Part shown: positions 284 to 5,757 of the stretch, in pieces
How the letters are laid out: each line of letters opens with the position of its first letter
How positions within the stretch are numbered: the first letter of the stretch is position 1
UHGV virus genome: UHGV-1752853
DNA: 22,496 nucleotides
Origin: a virus
Strand: one strand, 5' to 3'
Program-made: the position numbers and the translations under genes
Notes under the pieces: model-generated
Database searches by the model: none
What the model was told of the DNA's origin: nothing
What the model saw: only the letters and a program-made list of their open reading frames with translations

Positions 284-2215
284 ATGACGTTTAAACATTA
301 TGATGTGGTCAGGGCAGGTTCAGCATCAGGGCTTGCTGAGCAGCTGGCACAGAAGATAAAAGAAGGGTGGCAACCGTATGGCAGTCCTGTGGCTGTCACA
401 CCAAACATCCTGATGCAGGCTGTTGCTGCAGAGGGTGATGTGAGCACGCCTGTGGTTGTTCCCGGCACGGGAGCCGGCGTAGCATCGGGAGTGACATCCG
501 GGGAGCCGGATTATTACTACGTGGTGGTACTCGCCGGACAGTCGAACGGGATGGCGTATGGTGAGGGTATTCCTCTTCCGGAGACTTACGACCGTCCTGA
601 CCCGCGTATCAAGCAACTGGCCAGACGCAGTACGGTAACGCCGGGTGGTGAAGCCTGTTCTTATAATGATGTCATTCAGGCAGACCACTGCCTGCATGAT
701 GTGCAGGATATGAGCAGCTTTAACCATCCGAAAGCTGATCTGAGCAAAGGGCAGTACGGGACTGTCGGTCAGGGACTGCATATTGCCAAAAAACTGCTGC
801 CTTACATTCCGCAGAATGCCGGGATACTTCTGGTTCCCTGCTGTCGTGGTGGTTCGGCATTCACCACCGGGGCTGATGGCTCATTCAGTGAGGCCAGAGG
901 TGCTTCTGCTGACTCTGCATGCTGGGGAGCCGGTAAACCCCTGTATCAGGACCTGGTAAGCCGCACCAGAGCGGCACTGGCGAAGAACCCGAAAAATAAA
1001 CTTCTGGCTGTGGTATGGATGCAGGGAGAGACAGACCTTGCATCAGGAAGTCAGCAGCATAATGGTTTATTCACTGCCATGGTTCAGCAGTTCAGAACAG
1101 ACCTGTCTTCAGTTGCAGCGCAGTGCGTGAGTGGAAATGCTGGCACGGTGCCGTGGATTTGTGGTGACACGACATATTACTGGAAGGCAACGTACGGTAC
1201 GCAGTATGACGCCTTATACAGCGCGTATAAAACGCTGTCAGCACAGCATATCTTCTTTGTTCCGTTCCTGACGGATGAGAATGGACAGAACACGCCAACG
1301 AATGCTCCGACGGAAGACCAGGATATTGTGGCTGTCGGGTATTACGGTGCGGCATCCAGAACAAACGGGAATTTCGTTGCGGCACAGCGCGAAAGTCATT
1401 TCAGCGCATGGGCACGCAGGGGCATCATTTCTGACCGTCTGGCCTCCGCTATTCTGCTCCATGCAGGGCGCACGGCTGAACTGATGGGCGGGCAGGTCGT
1501 GACACCACCGGATGAGAAGCCGTCACCTGACACCCCGTCAGCGGACGGGAAATCAATGACAACGCTGCTTTCTTACCGGGCATCGGAGTCAGGCGGAGCA
1601 CTGAAGTCACAGGGATGGGCGGCTGCCGGTGGGAGTGCCATTATTGTTGATGATGCCGGTGCCAGTGAAGGTAAGGCACTGAAACTGACCAAACAGACCG
1701 GAAGGTCATGGGCTGTACAGCATGATGCCGGTAATGGTGCCGACCTGCTGGAAAAAGGTGGCCTTGTCAGCTGTCGTTTTAAACTTGATGGCGCGCTTAC
1801 GGCTAATCAGTACGCACTGGCGCTGTACTGGCCGGTTTCTTCGCTGCCTCAGGGCGTCACACTGGAAGGTAATGCCGGTCATAACCTGCTGGCATCGTTT
1901 TACGTTCAGAGCGATGCCACAGACCTTAACGTGATGTACCACAAGGGTAATCCGGACCAGAACACGAAGCTGGGTTCATTCGGTGCATTTAATAACGAGT
2001 GGCATACGCTGGCATTCCGTTTTGCCGGTAACAACAGTATTGAGGTAACGCCGGTGATTGATGGTCAGGACGGAACACCGTTCATGCTGTCGCAGTCTCC
2101 GGTAGGGACACTGGCGGCAGACAAGTTACGCCTGACCGATATCACCAGTAATGCAACGTATCCGGTACTGATTGACAGCATTATGGTTGAAGTGAATAAC
2201 CTGTCAGCAGGATAA
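284..2215 (+). CDS. nanS-p: Prophage-encoded sialate 9-O-acetylesterase, NanS-p-like (N-terminal DUF1737-like domain plus SGNH-type esterase domain)
   Basis: ORF track 218-2215; start moved to ATG 284, which has a GGAGGA RBS at 275-280. N-terminus MTFKHYDVVRAG...KEGWQPYG and the esterase motif VVLAGQSNGMAYGEG are recognised from memory of Stx/lambdoid prophage NanS-p proteins. Position just upstream of the lysis cassette fits. Confidence 0.7.
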   Translation: MTFKHYDVVRAGSASGLAEQLAQKIKEGWQPYGSPVAVTPNILMQAVAAEGDVSTPVVVPGTGAGVASGVTSGEPDYYYVVVLAGQSNGMAYGEGIPLPETYDRPDPRIKQLARRSTVTPGGEACSYNDVIQADHCLHDVQDMSSFNHPKADLSKGQYGTVGQGLHIAKKLLPYIPQNAGILLVPCCRGGSAFTTGADGSFSEARGASADSACWGAGKPLYQDLVSRTRAALAKNPKNKLLAVVWMQGETDLASGSQQHNGLFTAMVQQFRTDLSSVAAQCVSGNAGTVPWICGDTTYYWKATYGTQYDALYSAYKTLSAQHIFFVPFLTDENGQNTPTNAPTEDQDIVAVGYYGAASRTNGNFVAAQRESHFSAWARRGIISDRLASAILLHAGRTAELMGGQVVTPPDEKPSPDTPSADGKSMTTLLSYRASESGGALKSQGWAAAGGSAIIVDDAGASEGKALKLTKQTGRSWAVQHDAGNGADLLEKGGLVSCRFKLDGALTANQYALALYWPVSSLPQGVTLEGNAGHNLLASFYVQSDATDLNVMYHKGNPDQNTKLGSFGAFNNEWHTLAFRFAGNNSIEVTPVIDGQDGTPFMLSQSPVGTLAADKLRLTDITSNATYPVLIDSIMVEVNNLSAG

Positions 2216-2350
2216 AAAAATCCCGCCAGTCGTGAGCAGATATATGACTGGCGGGTAATTATTTCCGATTTACCAGAAAAGCATAATGTTATATTCACTA
2301 CAGAGAATGATAGCTTTCTCGGACGCTTTTCTACCGGTAACGGTTACCTG

Positions 2351-2960
2351 GGTCAACATGACGGATAAATAATGATGTTTTTTCCGCTGATATTTATATC
2401 TTTCTGTACGGCACGCCATTCTGAAGCAGGCGCAGTTCATGACAGTAGTACAGATATTCAGCTGGAGACAGGCATCACCCGGTCAGGTATGTATAACGCT
2501 GAGCTGGCATCTGATTGTTGATATATTGGGAGGTCATTATGCGGGTAAGGATAAAAAAATGCCGCCGGGAAGAAGGTCAGGAACCGACGGCAATAAGTCA
2601 ACTAACTTAGCTTAACATGCAGAAACATTTAAAACTGGTTAATGCTTGCAGGTCAACAGAACGGAGGAATAATGACGTTTTTTCATCTGATATTTATGTC
2701 TTTCTGTGCTCCACGCCATTCTGAAGCTGGCGTCTGATTGTTGATATGGTGGATGGTTGTTACGACGGCGTGAGGATAAAAAATGCCGCCGGGAAAAGTG
2801 TCCTGAACCGGCGGCAAAGGTCATGCGATGGATATTGCCAATAAGGCTTAATAGGCCCGGTAATTTCTAATCAGAATGAATGTAACGGTCAATAACGGAG
2901 AGGAATAATGACATTTTTACAGCTGATATTACTGTATTTCTGTACGGCGGTGTGTGCGTT
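2351..2960. repeat. Three tandem diverged copies of a short module (GGTCAAC..ACGGAGGAATA-ATG followed by an MTFF.LIF..SFC-type ORF start); copies 1 and 2 are also followed by a GC-rich hairpin
   Basis: Module starts near 2351, 2651 and 2888. Copy 1 ORF 2371-2424 (17 codons), copy 2 ORF 2672-2737 (21 codons), copy 3 is the intact 72-codon ORF 2908-3126. Hairpins TGCCGCCGG/CCGACGGCA at 2560-2592 and TGCCGCCGG/CCGGCGGCA at 2784-2816, each preceded by an A-run. Confidence 0.6.
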
Positions 2961-3126
2961 ATATCTGCTGAGTGGGGGTTATAAGGTCATTCGTAATTAT
3001 GTCCGTCGAAAAATTGATGATGCGGCGGTGGCGAAGGTGAGAGCCTCTGCTGCGCCCGTGGTATCGTCAACAAATGCGGCAGTCACCACAAACACCGCAA
3101 ATCAGATGGCTGATACCGGCGCATAA
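2908..3126 (+). CDS. Small protein with N-terminal hydrophobic segment (72 aa), function unknown; intact copy of the triplicated module
   Basis: ORF track 2908-3126; RBS GGAGAGGA at 2897-2904; predicted single N-terminal transmembrane helix (FLQLILLYFCTAVCALYLL). Confidence 0.45.
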   Translation: MTFLQLILLYFCTAVCALYLLSGGYKVIRNYVRRKIDDAAVAKVRASAAPVVSSTNAAVTTNTANQMADTGA

Positions 3127-3209
3127 GCGTACCGCATCATGCTGTACCAGATTAAGGAACATGGCCGCTCTGAGTGGCCTTTTTTATGGACCACCCGCAG
3201 GGGATGTGG

Positions 3210-3431
3210 ATGGTGAGAATGAACATATCAGTAGTGGCGTCGGGGGTTTCTTACACCACATCCTTGGTCAGTGGTGGTTACTGGCTTCTGCAGTTACTGG
3301 ATGCGGTGAGTCCGTCCCAGTGGGCGGGGATAGGTGTCCTGTCGAGTGTGCTTCTGGGAATACTGACGTACCTGACGAATCTGTACTTCAGGATTAAGGA
3401 CGACAGGCGTAAGGCTGCAGGAGGAGAGTAA
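3210..3431 (+). CDS. S: Class II pinholin, phage 21 S21-like, with dual-start motif (Met-Val-Arg-Met)
   Basis: C-terminal two thirds ([52 protein letters not shown]) closely matches my recollection of S21. Starts at 3210 and 3219 reproduce the S21 71/68 antiholin/holin arrangement. The track ORF begins at 3174 but I prefer 3210. Confidence 0.8.
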
Positions 3432-3435
3432 TTCA

Positions 3436-3864
3436 ATGACTCAAAAACATGAACGGGTTGTTAAAGGAACCCGCAATTTTGATAAAAGAGATTTTACTGT
3501 TTCGACACCGGACAAAGACTGGGAATGTAACCGGCCATCCTTTGTTGTATCCGGTGATGGCGGGAAAATAATCATCTCAGAAAATGGCAAAGTAACGCCA
3601 CCATCACGCCGGCACAGCGAAGAACTTATCAGGTTTGCCATTGATTACCTGATGAATAATGAACAACAGGGTCTGATGAAGCGCATTGGTCGCTGCATGG
3701 GGTATCTGCAGGTTGCCGCAGAGATTGAAGCGCTGGCCAGTGGTGCAGACAGGGATGCAGTTGTGAGGGAGACTGTTCTTCGTGATTTTGATAACCCGCC
3801 CTTTAAAGACGTTCCTGCTTACTGGCTCCATCCGGGGCTGACTTATCTTAAAGGGCGTATATAA
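3436..3864 (+). CDS. Hypothetical protein (142 aa), unrecognised, inserted between holin and endolysin
   Basis: ORF track; ATG sits 5 nt after the holin stop, so likely co-translated with the late operon; AT-rich relative to flanking genes; no family recognised. Confidence 0.5.
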   Translation: MTQKHERVVKGTRNFDKRDFTVSTPDKDWECNRPSFVVSGDGGKIIISENGKVTPPSRRHSEELIRFAIDYLMNNEQQGLMKRIGRCMGYLQVAAEIEALASGADRDAVVRETVLRDFDNPPFKDVPAYWLHPGLTYLKGRI

Positions 3865-3873
3865 GCTGGCGCG

Positions 3874-4188
3874 TTATCTGTCGCCAGATAATCGACTGAA
3901 GATGCGTTCTTTTTGTAATCTGGCGTAATTATTGTCCCACTTGCAGGCAAGGTAACTTAATTCTTCATTCAACCAGTTATTTATATTGGTCTTAAGACGC
4001 AGAAGCATGGGCGGTGTTAATGCTCCGGACATAATACGGAGAGTGACAGATGTGAGATGTCCATACGGCTCAGCCTGAATGGCCTTTACTGCTTCGTGTT
4101 CTTGCGGGAGGAGTGAGAGGCACTCTGATTTTACCCGTTCATTTATGGCCTGCAGGCATAAATCATAATTATGTTGATCGTTATGCAT
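3874..4188 (-). CDS. Hypothetical protein (104 aa), unrecognised, convergent with the 142-aa ORF
   Basis: ORF track; strong SD (GAGGA, 6-nt spacer) upstream of ATG on the minus strand; AT-rich codons; hairpin GCTGGCG...CGCCAG at 3866-3887 between the convergent genes. Confidence 0.5.
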   Translation of the reverse strand: MHNDQHNYDLCLQAINERVKSECLSLLPQEHEAVKAIQAEPYGHLTSVTLRIMSGALTPPMLLRLKTNINNWLNEELSYLACKWDNNYARLQKERIFSRLSGDR

Positions 4189-4326
4189 GGTTAATCCTCT
4201 ACCGGAATTGTCAGATATATTTCAGCCATCAGGTACAACGCCAGTGTCCCACCACTGGCCACCACTGGCGGGCTGAAGACTTAACATATCCAGGGTTCAG
4301 AAACCTATAAATCCTGATAAATTTCC

Positions 4327-4860
4327 ATGAATACAAAAATCAGATACGGCCTGTCGGCTGCCGTTCTGGCACTGATTTCCGCAGGGGCTTCTGCGCCTGA
4401 AATCCTTGACCAGTTTCTGGATGAGAAAGAAGGCAACCACCTGACGGCATACCGTGACGGTACGGGTATCTGGACCATCTGCCGTGGCGCCACAATGGTG
4501 GACGGTAAGCCTGTCGTTCCTGGCATGAAGCTGACGAAGGAAAAATGCGACCGAGTGAACGCCATCGAACGGGATAAGGCGCTGGCGTGGGTGGAGAAAA
4601 ACATCAAAGTGCCACTGACTGAACCGCAGAAAGCGGGCATCGCGTCATTCTGTCCGTACAACATCGGGCCTTCGAAATGCTTCACCTCAACGTTTTACCG
4701 GAAACTGAACGCCGGAGACCGGAAAGGTGCATGTGCTGAAATCCGCCGATGGATATATGACGGCGGCAGGGACTGTCGGAACCGCTCAAATAACTGTTAC
4801 GGGCAGGTATCGCGGCGTGACCAGGAGAGCGCGCTGGCGTGCTGGAGTATCGACAGATAA
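4327..4860 (+). CDS. R: Endolysin, GH24 T4-lysozyme-like with N-terminal SAR/signal-like segment
   Basis: Catalytic-triad-like spacing E-x8-D-x5-T in EGNHLTAYRDGTGIWTICRGAT; weakly hydrophobic Gly/Ala/Ser-rich N-terminus (YGLSAAVLALISAGASA) typical of SAR endolysins paired with pinholins. Confidence 0.85.
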   Translation: MNTKIRYGLSAAVLALISAGASAPEILDQFLDEKEGNHLTAYRDGTGIWTICRGATMVDGKPVVPGMKLTKEKCDRVNAIERDKALAWVEKNIKVPLTEPQKAGIASFCPYNIGPSKCFTSTFYRKLNAGDRKGACAEIRRWIYDGGRDCRNRSNNCYGQVSRRDQESALACWSIDR

Positions 4861-4951
4861 GCAGAATGTTCTGCTGAAAAATGCCGTTGGCCAACGCGGA
4901 CGGATAACACGAAATCCTGCGAACTGGCAAAGCGTAAGTGAATAAAAGTAA

Positions 4952-4988
4952 AACCCCGATTGCGTCAACAGTCGGGGTTTTGTGTTTA
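4952..4988 (+). terminator. Terminator-like hairpin downstream of the endolysin
   Basis: AACCCCGA/TCGGGGTT 8-bp stem (4952-4959 and 4972-4979), 12-nt loop, followed by TTTGTGTTT. Confidence 0.4.
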
Positions 4989-5052
4989 TGGCAGTAGGTT
5001 ATGGGAGGCTGCCTTGATTGATTTTAGCAAACTGATTAGGGAGTTGCGACTC

Positions 5053-5148
5053 ATGACTGGTCAATTACCAAACTGGAAGTTTCTGCTGGTCTGGAGCATC
5101 CCGTTTTTATGGGTGGTATCCCAGTTAATTACCGCAATTAAGGGGTAA
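5053..5148 (+). CDS. Small hydrophobic peptide (31 aa), hypothetical
   Basis: ATG 5053 with AGGGAG upstream; sequence MTGQLPNWKFLLVWSIPFLWVVSQLITAIKG has one predicted TM helix; the track ORF 4960-5148 begins inside the terminator hairpin so the start was moved. Confidence 0.3.
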   Translation: MTGQLPNWKFLLVWSIPFLWVVSQLITAIKG

Positions 5149-5150
5149 AC

Positions 5151-5282
5151 ATGTCAGACAAACTCATAAAACTGGCGCAGGTCCTCTGTGTAATTGTCGG
5201 CATTTCATTGTCAGCAATGCTGGTTGCTCTTTTTCTTTCCACGGCCTGGCGAGTATTGACTTTATCCGGGCTGCTGGGGTGA
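5151..5282 (+). CDS. Small membrane protein (43 aa), hypothetical
   Basis: ATG 5151 with AAGGGG RBS 6 nt upstream; MSDKLIKLAQVLCVIVGISLSAMLVALFLSTAWRVLTLSGLLG; stop 5280-5282 directly precedes Rz; below the track length cutoff. Confidence 0.35.
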   Translation: MSDKLIKLAQVLCVIVGISLSAMLVALFLSTAWRVLTLSGLLG

Positions 5283-5289
5283 CGGTGAT

Positions 5290-5757
5290 ATGAACCGTGT
5301 TCTGTATGTGGTGCTTATTGCCCTGCTGCTTGGTTGTGGAGCGCTGTGGCTGGCAACAGACCATTACCGTGATAACGCCATGACCTACAAAGCGCAGCGC
5401 GATAACAAAGCCAGTGAACTGGAGAAAGCGAATGCAACCATTACTGATATGCAGCAGCGCCAGCGGGATGTTGCTGCACTCGATGCAAAATATACAAAGG
5501 AGTTAGCCGATGCGAGAGCTGAAAATGAAACTCTGCGCGCTGATGTTGCCGCTGGTCGCCGCAGCCTGCGGGTCAACGCCACCTGTGTGTCCACCACAGA
5601 TAAAACCACCGGCACCACCAGCATGGATAATGCAGCCCGCCCCCGACTGGCAGACACCGCTCAACGGAATTATTTCACCCTCAGAGAGCGACTGATGACG
5701 ATGCAGAAGCAACTGGAAGGGGCACAGCTCTACATCAATGAGCAATGCCTCAGATAA
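5290..5757 (+). CDS. Rz: Rz i-spanin (inner membrane spanin subunit)
   Basis: N-terminal TM followed by HYRDNAMTYKAQRD...DVAAGRR...RLADTAQRNYFTLRERL...YINEQC, recognised as lambda Rz-like. Confidence 0.85.
   Translation: MNRVLYVVLIALLLGCGALWLATDHYRDNAMTYKAQRDNKASELEKANATITDMQQRQRDVAALDAKYTKELADARAENETLRADVAAGRRSLRVNATCVSTTDKTTGTTSMDNAARPRLADTAQRNYFTLRERLMTMQKQLEGAQLYINEQCLR
5510..5695 (+). CDS. Rz1: Rz1 o-spanin (outer membrane lipoprotein), embedded in the +1 frame of Rz
   Basis: Lipobox LVAAAC followed by a proline-rich segment; the segment from PPAPPAWIMQPAPDWQTPLNGIISPSE onward resembles lambda Rz1; wholly embedded in Rz. Confidence 0.75.
   Translation: MRELKMKLCALMLPLVAAACGSTPPVCPPQIKPPAPPAWIMQPAPDWQTPLNGIISPSESD

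Follow-up and report, generated by a model that had tools for sequence, protein, structure and literature searches.

In the Qin prophage of Escherichia coli K-12, the slot between the S21-type holin gene essQ and the lysozyme gene rrrQ is occupied by ydfR (gene order essQ-ydfR-rrrQ). For residues 1-72 of its product, YdfR, which belongs to the DUF1327 family (PF07041), binding to the catalytic half of RNase E has been reported, and the protein possibly binds RNA; SlyX is the other RNase E binder reported (PMC13232886). In Shiga toxin (Stx) 2 phage 86, two convergent genes lie between holin and endolysin, namely orf5 and orf6, recorded as encoding a "YdfR family protein" (gp05) and a "hypothetical protein" (gp06), respectively. 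The same pair is present in a prophage of E. coli O104:H4 str. 2011C-3493 and in strain 55989. The present analysis concerns a pair with the same order (holin, A, convergent B, endolysin), here termed open reading frames (ORFs) A and B, found at positions 3432-4326 of UHGV virus genome UHGV-1752853, a stretch of 22,496 nucleotides (nt) that is referred to in full as the window.

With high confidence, ORF-A and ORF-B can be regarded as two real genes that together form a recurrent mosaic accessory module of the late, lysis-proximal region in lambda-like prophages of Escherichia, Shigella, and Salmonella. Sequences of this kind are already public (phage 86 orf5/orf6, O104:H4, and PHROGs 1085 and 1853), with function unassigned in those records, and the literature yielded no account of function for phage 86 orf5/orf6 or for the genes that intervene between S and R in Stx phages. 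Neither the pairing of convergent genes in both Escherichia and Salmonella nor the conserved palindrome that accompanies it appears to have been described before.

A convergent gene pair between holin and endolysin

A first-pass annotation of the window, made from the letters alone, had placed two ORFs in DNA of lower G+C content between an S21-type holin and a signal-anchor-release (SAR) endolysin, and reanalysis bore this out. ORF-A (3436..3864, + strand, 142 amino acids (aa)) lies in the late gene transcription unit, encodes a soluble protein, and matches PHROG 1085 (E 7.5e-76). ORF-B (3874..4188, - strand, 104 aa) encodes a soluble five-helix protein that matches PHROG 1853 over residues 1-102 (E 9.1e-46). 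The two are convergent, with 9 nt separating their stop codons and no terminator between them. Upstream lies the class II (S21-type) holin gene (3210..3431, + strand; PF04971, E 1.5e-27), the stop codon of which occupies 3429-3431. The ATG of ORF-A at 3436 is 4 nt past this stop codon, and its ribosome binding site (RBS), GGAGGAG, sits within the holin gene. Downstream lies a 177-aa endolysin gene (4327..4860, + strand) matching Phage_lysozyme (PF00959, E 2.6e-26) and PHROG 7 (endolysin). The insert has a G+C content of 45.9%, as compared with 55.3% for the window, 53.5% for the holin gene, and 55.2% for the endolysin gene, and third-position G+C is 0.43-0.44 in ORF-A and ORF-B versus 0.64-0.65 in the holin and endolysin genes. 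The drop in G+C across the insert is genuine, though moderate.

Both ORFs remain open and constant in length in relatives down to 25-40% identity, homologues of ORF-B retaining 104-107 aa even at 25%. Pairwise ratios of nonsynonymous to synonymous substitution (dN/dS; Nei-Gojobori) were 0.17-0.40 for the ORF-A C-terminal domain and 0.09-0.53 (mostly 0.22-0.53) for ORF-B, with 0.05-0.16 for the endolysin. AlphaFold2 (AF2) models of each protein as a single chain gave a mean predicted local distance difference test (pLDDT) score of 90.9 for ORF-B, with five helices, and 68.8 for ORF-A, in which residues 30-110 exceeded 80. ORF-A and ORF-B are genuine genes under purifying selection, given the intact frames, the low dN/dS across diverged copies, and the model confidence for ORF-B and for the core of ORF-A.

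The pair recurs with a constant arrangement. In the ∼50 Escherichia-type loci recovered by means of B, the order was always holin, an N-terminal module fused to the A C-terminal domain, convergent B, and endolysin, and the stop codons of A and B lay 10-16 nt apart. More distant homologues of B, 25-50% identical to it, were found in clusters P0109, P0112, and P0122 and in a Salmonella Dublin gene, and each was convergent with or overlapped an A homologue (36-40% identity). The Salmonella-type pairs are located upstream of the holin gene, in the order Q, A, convergent B, holin, and lysozyme, and accompany other holin families (PF16080 and PF05106). No B was seen apart from the 3' end of an A gene in the loci recovered here. 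This distribution shows, as far as homologues allow it to be traced, that the convergent pair has outlasted deep divergence and a move relative to the holin gene while remaining holin-adjacent and within the late operon. In one Salmonella lineage (L076, 4180-4440), an 86-aa antisense ORF lies over the 3' end of A; at 18% identity it is not a homologue of B and could represent another antisense gene or an ORF open by chance.

The two genes differ greatly in abundance. Among 50,697 GenBank phage records, ORF-B was found in 4 and the A C-terminal domain in 5, as compared with 184 that matched a query containing the endolysin. Among complete E. coli genomes, DNA of the A domain was present in 787 of 5426 (∼14%) and B DNA in 95 of 5426. 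The B family is small: a collection of 5.8 billion proteins contains 14 clusters of it, and one of 1.84 billion has 21 representatives at 50% identity. GTDB representatives scanned with the A alignment yielded only Escherichia and Shigella loci and, with the B alignment, no loci; IMG/VR scanned with Salmonella-type B proteins yielded nothing.

Between the window and phage 86, the number of synonymous substitutions per site (dS) was 0.20 for ORF-B and 0.49 for the A C-terminal domain, versus 1.34 for the endolysin and 1.51 for the holin. The low values within the module and the high values in its flanks imply that the module has been exchanged far more recently than the surrounding lysis genes. 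Taken with the distinct base composition, and with the rarity of the pair among GenBank phages that match the endolysin, this contrast supports the first-pass suggestion of variable cargo.

That suggestion had been coupled to a simple insertion between genes that normally abut, and here the evidence points elsewhere. The S21-type holin is not generally followed directly by the endolysin: in addition to ydfR in Qin, an unannotated DUF1327 ORF occupies the 400-bp holin-endolysin gap of H-19B, and in PhiR5_1 a gene encoding DUF1327 plus a coiled coil fills the slot. The holin-endolysin junction is, on this comparison of gene orders, a modular accessory site with a ydfR-type gene as its basic occupant. 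Nor do loci carrying A alone resemble sites that were never filled. L064 (3580-3685) keeps the last codons of B, with the junction at a GATAA microhomology, and L013 (1800-1900) keeps part of the region upstream of B, remnants which indicate that B was deleted there. Judged as a moron, the module has a composition unlike its flanks in both overall and third-position G+C. As to an insertion signature, relatives without B hold remnants of it, which points to deletion, and the slot is usually filled by a ydfR-type gene. As to expression signals of its own, a conserved upstream region with a palindrome is present, whereas neither a consensus sigma-70 site nor a terminator 3' of B was found.

The two proteins and the region upstream of ORF-B

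The first-pass annotation recognized neither protein. For ORF-A this no longer holds: by alignment, it derives from a "YdfR family" fusion protein through an in-frame deletion. Compared with the 268-aa form found in phage 86 (gp05) and E. coli LH50-c, ORF-A lacks 126 codons, in frame, after residue 15. Alignment with these two proteins identifies its first 15 codons (3436..3480, + strand), which encode MTQKHERVVKGTRNF, as a remnant of the YdfR/DUF1327 N terminus that abuts the deletion junction; the equivalent start of K-12 YdfR is MTQDYELVVKGVRNF. Residues ∼16-142 align to the C-terminal part of the 268-aa protein, and the match to PHROG 1085 is accordingly confined to profile positions 167-296 of 296. 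By gathering score ORF-A falls outside DUF1327 (14.1 bits versus a cut-off of 25), residues 1-28 aligning with profile positions 1-29 of 93. Descent from a YdfR-family gene is nonetheless borne out by the common slot, the common start, and the alignable N terminus. ORF-A matches a 142-aa cluster (P0015) at 97% identity.

The remainder of ORF-A is the C-terminal domain of the family (3517..3864, + strand), which comprises ∼115 aa and, from alignments and the AF2 model, three short strands and three to four helices. It contains the invariant motifs GRCMG-LQVAAEIE and DFDNPPFK...W..PG..YLK. In 94 related clusters this domain is constant and what precedes it varies: the commonest form (213 aa) has a coiled coil there, and others have DUF1327 (268 aa), both modules (329 aa, in Stx2_95), or nearly nothing. 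Near-bare forms are represented by the window (142 aa), by L010 (129 aa), and by Salmonella P0140 (107 aa). The junction in L010 differs from that in the window, and its short form is an independent one. A relationship between the coiled-coil module and SlyX was considered; the Pfam match was weak (E 0.17, in one member), and BLASTP and phmmer comparisons with K-12 SlyX did not support it. In profile searches the A family reached Salmonella enterica prophages at 36-45% identity, with all members labeled "hypothetical".

Neither protein was found to have a characterized homologue, in which respect the first-pass view stands; profile and structure searches returned no characterized lysis accessory protein for either. 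No significant match was obtained in Pfam or NCBIfam, with single proteins or with whole alignments, so that the A C-terminal domain belongs to no Pfam family. Foldseek searches of the PDB with both models, and of BFVD with that of ORF-B, found no structure at E < 0.7; searching PDB sequences by profile (and, for ORF-B, Pfam as well) gave only noise. PADLOC-DB 2.0.0, a library dated 2023, contained no model matching A, B, or phage 86 gp05 at E ≤ 1. The highest 19-residue Kyte-Doolittle means were 0.76 for A and 1.13 for B, as compared with 1.67 for the holin; as first noted, neither protein has an obvious transmembrane segment, and no signal sequence was found in either.

ORF-B has a Shine-Dalgarno sequence of its own, AGAGGA (4195..4200, - strand), which ends 6 nt before the ATG, as had been noted at the outset, and of which GAGGA is invariant in 13 distinct relatives. 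The 138-bp region between ORF-B and the endolysin (4189..4326) combines expression signals for ORF-B on the - strand with the translation start region of the endolysin on the + strand. In an alignment of 13 distinct versions this spacer was highly conserved, and 115 of 128 aligned bases (90%) were shared with phage 86 despite the endolysin dS of 1.34.

The conserved element within this spacer is a palindrome, CGCCAGTG ... CACTGGCG (4239..4270), which could be operator-like or form a hairpin and ends 50 nt upstream of the ORF-B ATG. The arrangement CGCCAGTG-N5/6-CACTGGCG, ending 49-51 nt ahead of the B ATG, was present in all Escherichia-type loci and in the Salmonella-type L071 and L072. L068 has CGTCAGTG-N8-CACTGGCG farther upstream (∼82 nt before the B ATG), and L067, with the most distant B, has the symmetrically changed GCCAGA-N6-TCTGGC ∼66 nt upstream of the ATG. 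The loop sequence is variable and in the window has grown from 6 to 16 nt. Relative to shuffled sequence, hairpin z-scores were -2.7 for L072, -2.8 for L071, and -1.4 for the window. The near-invariance of the arms is at least as compatible with a protein-binding site as with an RNA hairpin.

A direct repeat had originally been singled out in this region. The repeat exists, as a tandem 10-bp duplication of one palindrome arm (CCACCACTGG x2, at 4249-4258 and 4259-4268), but it is not a conserved signal. Two copies are found in the window and two identical contigs only, and other relatives, including L006, which has an identical ORF-B, hold one. A role for the repeat as a regulatory element was rejected on these grounds, and it is, to judge from its distribution, a recent lineage-specific duplication. 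Manual pattern searches for sigma-70, extended -10, sigma-54, and LexA-box sites revealed nothing convincing. A search of positions 2200-5400 against Rfam identified no family, and the two sub-threshold matches were both outside the module.

Possible roles of the pair

The best overall explanation is an accessory module composed of a late-expressed A and an antagonist, B, encoded antisense to it; this is put forward tentatively, with the balance of probability still against it, and its mechanistic part is decidedly doubtful. A would be made only when Q-dependent late transcription passes through the holin gene. B would be transcribed from its own signals, head-on to the late transcript, in the lysogen or early in infection, and might be controlled by a protein that binds the palindrome. 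The convergence of the two genes, the 9-nt spacing of their stop codons, and the lack of a terminator between them would be expected to lead to mutual interference in their expression. B would then antagonize or regulate A and act as a safety catch on this late-phase effector, and it would be dispensable under tight late transcription, which would explain its frequent deletion. A bolder version, which is improbable, would make the A C-terminal domain and B a new effector-antagonist pair of lambdoid late operons, with two orphan folds, head-on transcription forming part of the switch, and a palindromic operator of its own, all of them conserved between Escherichia and Salmonella prophages; the N-terminal modules (YdfR/DUF1327 or coiled coil) would direct the effector to some host machinery, for example RNase E.

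Several observations weigh against an antagonist encoded under its own operator. With isoelectric points of 6.9 (ORF-B) and 6.1 (the A C-terminal domain), neither protein is basic, and neither has a recognizable DNA-binding fold, making neither an evident binder of the palindrome. Single mismatches in the palindrome occur on either arm, neither strand being favored as an RNA hairpin. No consensus sigma-70 promoter for B was found in positions 2800-5000, and a manual search gave weak candidates only. L042 joins a class-IV-like A to a class-III B, and such recombination between classes argues against tight cognate specificity. L060 has an intact B beside a decayed 70-aa remnant of A. Finally, the constant adjacency of A and B is explicable by shared descent instead of function.

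The main rival, itself somewhat unlikely, is that A and B are functionally independent and are neighbors by history, A being a late accessory gene of the YdfR slot and B a lysogen-expressed moron, like bor, with a role in exclusion, defense, or host fitness. Most carriers of A lack B (787 versus 95 genomes), and L042 and L060 are as readily understood on these terms. The RBS and conserved upstream region of B, and the G+C content of the module below that of its flanks, would also suit such a moron. Against independence, B is always found at the 3' end of A, even at 25-50% identity and after the shift to a position upstream of the holin gene, the two genes are not insulated by a terminator, and a defense role for B finds no match in PADLOC.

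None of the roles put forward in the first-pass annotation (lysis timing, exclusion or defense, toxin-immunity) gained direct support. Regulation of lysis, by which A, alone or with B, would tune holin triggering or endolysin release and so set lysis timing, appears quite improbable. In both Escherichia and Salmonella prophages the module always adjoins the holin gene in the late operon, and the coupling of A to the holin gene, through its nearby start and its RBS within the holin gene, is of the kind such a role would favor. To our knowledge, however, characterized antiholins and endolysin regulators are membrane or periplasmic proteins, and A and B have neither membrane segments nor signal sequences. 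Moreover, the pair goes with differing holin families (PF04971, PF16080, and PF05106), the module is absent from most phages that have this endolysin, and B is antisense to the lysis genes.

A toxin-antitoxin or abortive-infection defense pair carried by the prophage is highly improbable. As in type II toxin-antitoxin systems, two small soluble proteins are encoded and a palindrome lies upstream of one gene; HicAB and ParE morons are found near the pair in Salmonella loci, which indicates that the region accepts toxin-antitoxin cargo. In type II systems, however, the two genes are co-oriented and co-transcribed, whereas A and B are convergent in every locus. Neither has a family match in Pfam, NCBIfam, or PADLOC, or a match by fold, and either partner can occur alone, as the many A-only loci and the decayed A of L060 attest. 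A would also be placed in a transcription unit that is silent in lysogens.

That A is a functionless deletion remnant and B a chance ORF is largely refuted and barely credible, for although A is 126 codons short of the 268-aa form and its O104:H4 homologue carries a RefSeq pseudogene flag, dN/dS is well under 1 for both genes, the deletion is in frame and is paralleled by a second independent short form and by Salmonella forms with the C-terminal domain only, B keeps its length to 25% identity with a pLDDT of 90.9, and the O104:H4 ORF is intact.

Flanking features and comparison with described systems

The window order around the module is SASA esterase, DUF1378, holin, A, B, endolysin, Rz, HNH, and terminase. 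The holin open frame begins at GTG 3174, and identical contigs carry a gene call of 70-81 aa. The sequence M-V-R-M, encoded at 3210-3221, is similar to the dual-start motif of S21 holin/antiholin, and dual starts at ATG 3210 and ATG 3219 are probable from the codons. A terminator-like hairpin, GGCCGCTCTGAGTGGCC followed by T6, lies on the late strand at 3163-3188, just 5' of the holin start, and a similar hairpin with a T-run precedes the holin gene in Salmonella loci L072 and L074. Farther upstream, the RBS and initial codons of the DUF1378 gene occur as three diverged direct copies (74-85% identical), at 2351-2412, 2651-2712, and 2887-2948. The third is that of the intact gene (2908-3126); the other two, in a stretch of 43% G+C (2216-2907), look like decayed partial paralogues.

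The endolysin N terminus, MNTKIRYGLSAAVLALISAGASAPE, is Ala/Gly/Ser-rich and weakly hydrophobic, and this feature, with the spacing E-x8-D-x5-T, fits an R21-like SAR endolysin, as had been proposed from the first. Just 3' of the endolysin gene, at 4950-4982 on the - strand, there is a sub-threshold Rfam match to sar antisense RNA (22.3 bits versus a gathering score of 43, E 0.31), probably by chance. Between endolysin and Rz, a 43-aa hydrophobic ORF is present at 5151-5282; L004, L010, L065, and L071 have a gene call of 43-45 aa at this spot too, and the ORF may encode a conserved small membrane protein of the lysis cassette. The window is only ∼81% identical to E. coli Stx phages over one third of its length, yet at least 20 public contigs, drawn from metagenomes and NCBI assemblies, encode an identical ORF-B. 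The probable host is an Escherichia lineage with scant representation among complete E. coli genomes.

The wider interest of the pair lies in its slot, a holin-adjacent modular accessory site of Stx-type and related prophages (Stx2 phage 86 and one prophage of the O104:H4 outbreak strain among them), and in an A-domain family which, although carried by so many complete E. coli genomes, has neither a fold relative nor a Pfam family. Should the pair control a late-phase activity or lysis, that would be relevant to phage release and, where Stx phages are concerned, to the release of toxin. With its two small soluble proteins and single DNA site, the pair offers a cheap experimental handle. To this module the window contributes a shortened variant of A and a duplicated palindrome arm, and demonstrates no new mechanism.

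Phage lambda bor is a moron of the lambdoid late region that is antisense and expressed in the lysogen. B resembles bor-like morons in its small size, its position on the strand opposite the late operon, its differing composition, and its presence or absence among related phages. It differs from them in being tied to A, in that the junctions examined indicate loss of B and not gain, and in that neither a promoter nor a terminator has been demonstrated for it.

YdfR, whose slot likewise falls between an S21-type holin and a lysozyme, shares 47% identity with phage 86 gp05 over the N-terminal 74 residues of the latter. YdfR consists of 103 aa and lacks the A C-terminal domain, whereas ORF-A has that domain and almost no DUF1327. 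Given that ORF-A keeps just 15 of YdfR residues 1-72, the RNase E binding reported for that region is not transferable to it.

The closest described relative is phage 86. The RefSeq entry for the O104:H4 2011C-3493 homologue of gp05 (L002:2542-3348) is a pseudogene "missing C-terminus", a status that was rejected on finding the 268-codon ORF intact and one residue different from gp05; given the C-terminal extension, the label looks like an annotation artifact. The gp05 protein has a full DUF1327, which in the window has been lost with the 126 codons deleted from A, and of the two only the window has the 10-bp palindrome duplication. Between the two phages the holin and endolysin genes are much more diverged than the pair that they enclose, in which the B proteins are 83% identical and the A C-terminal domains 78% identical.

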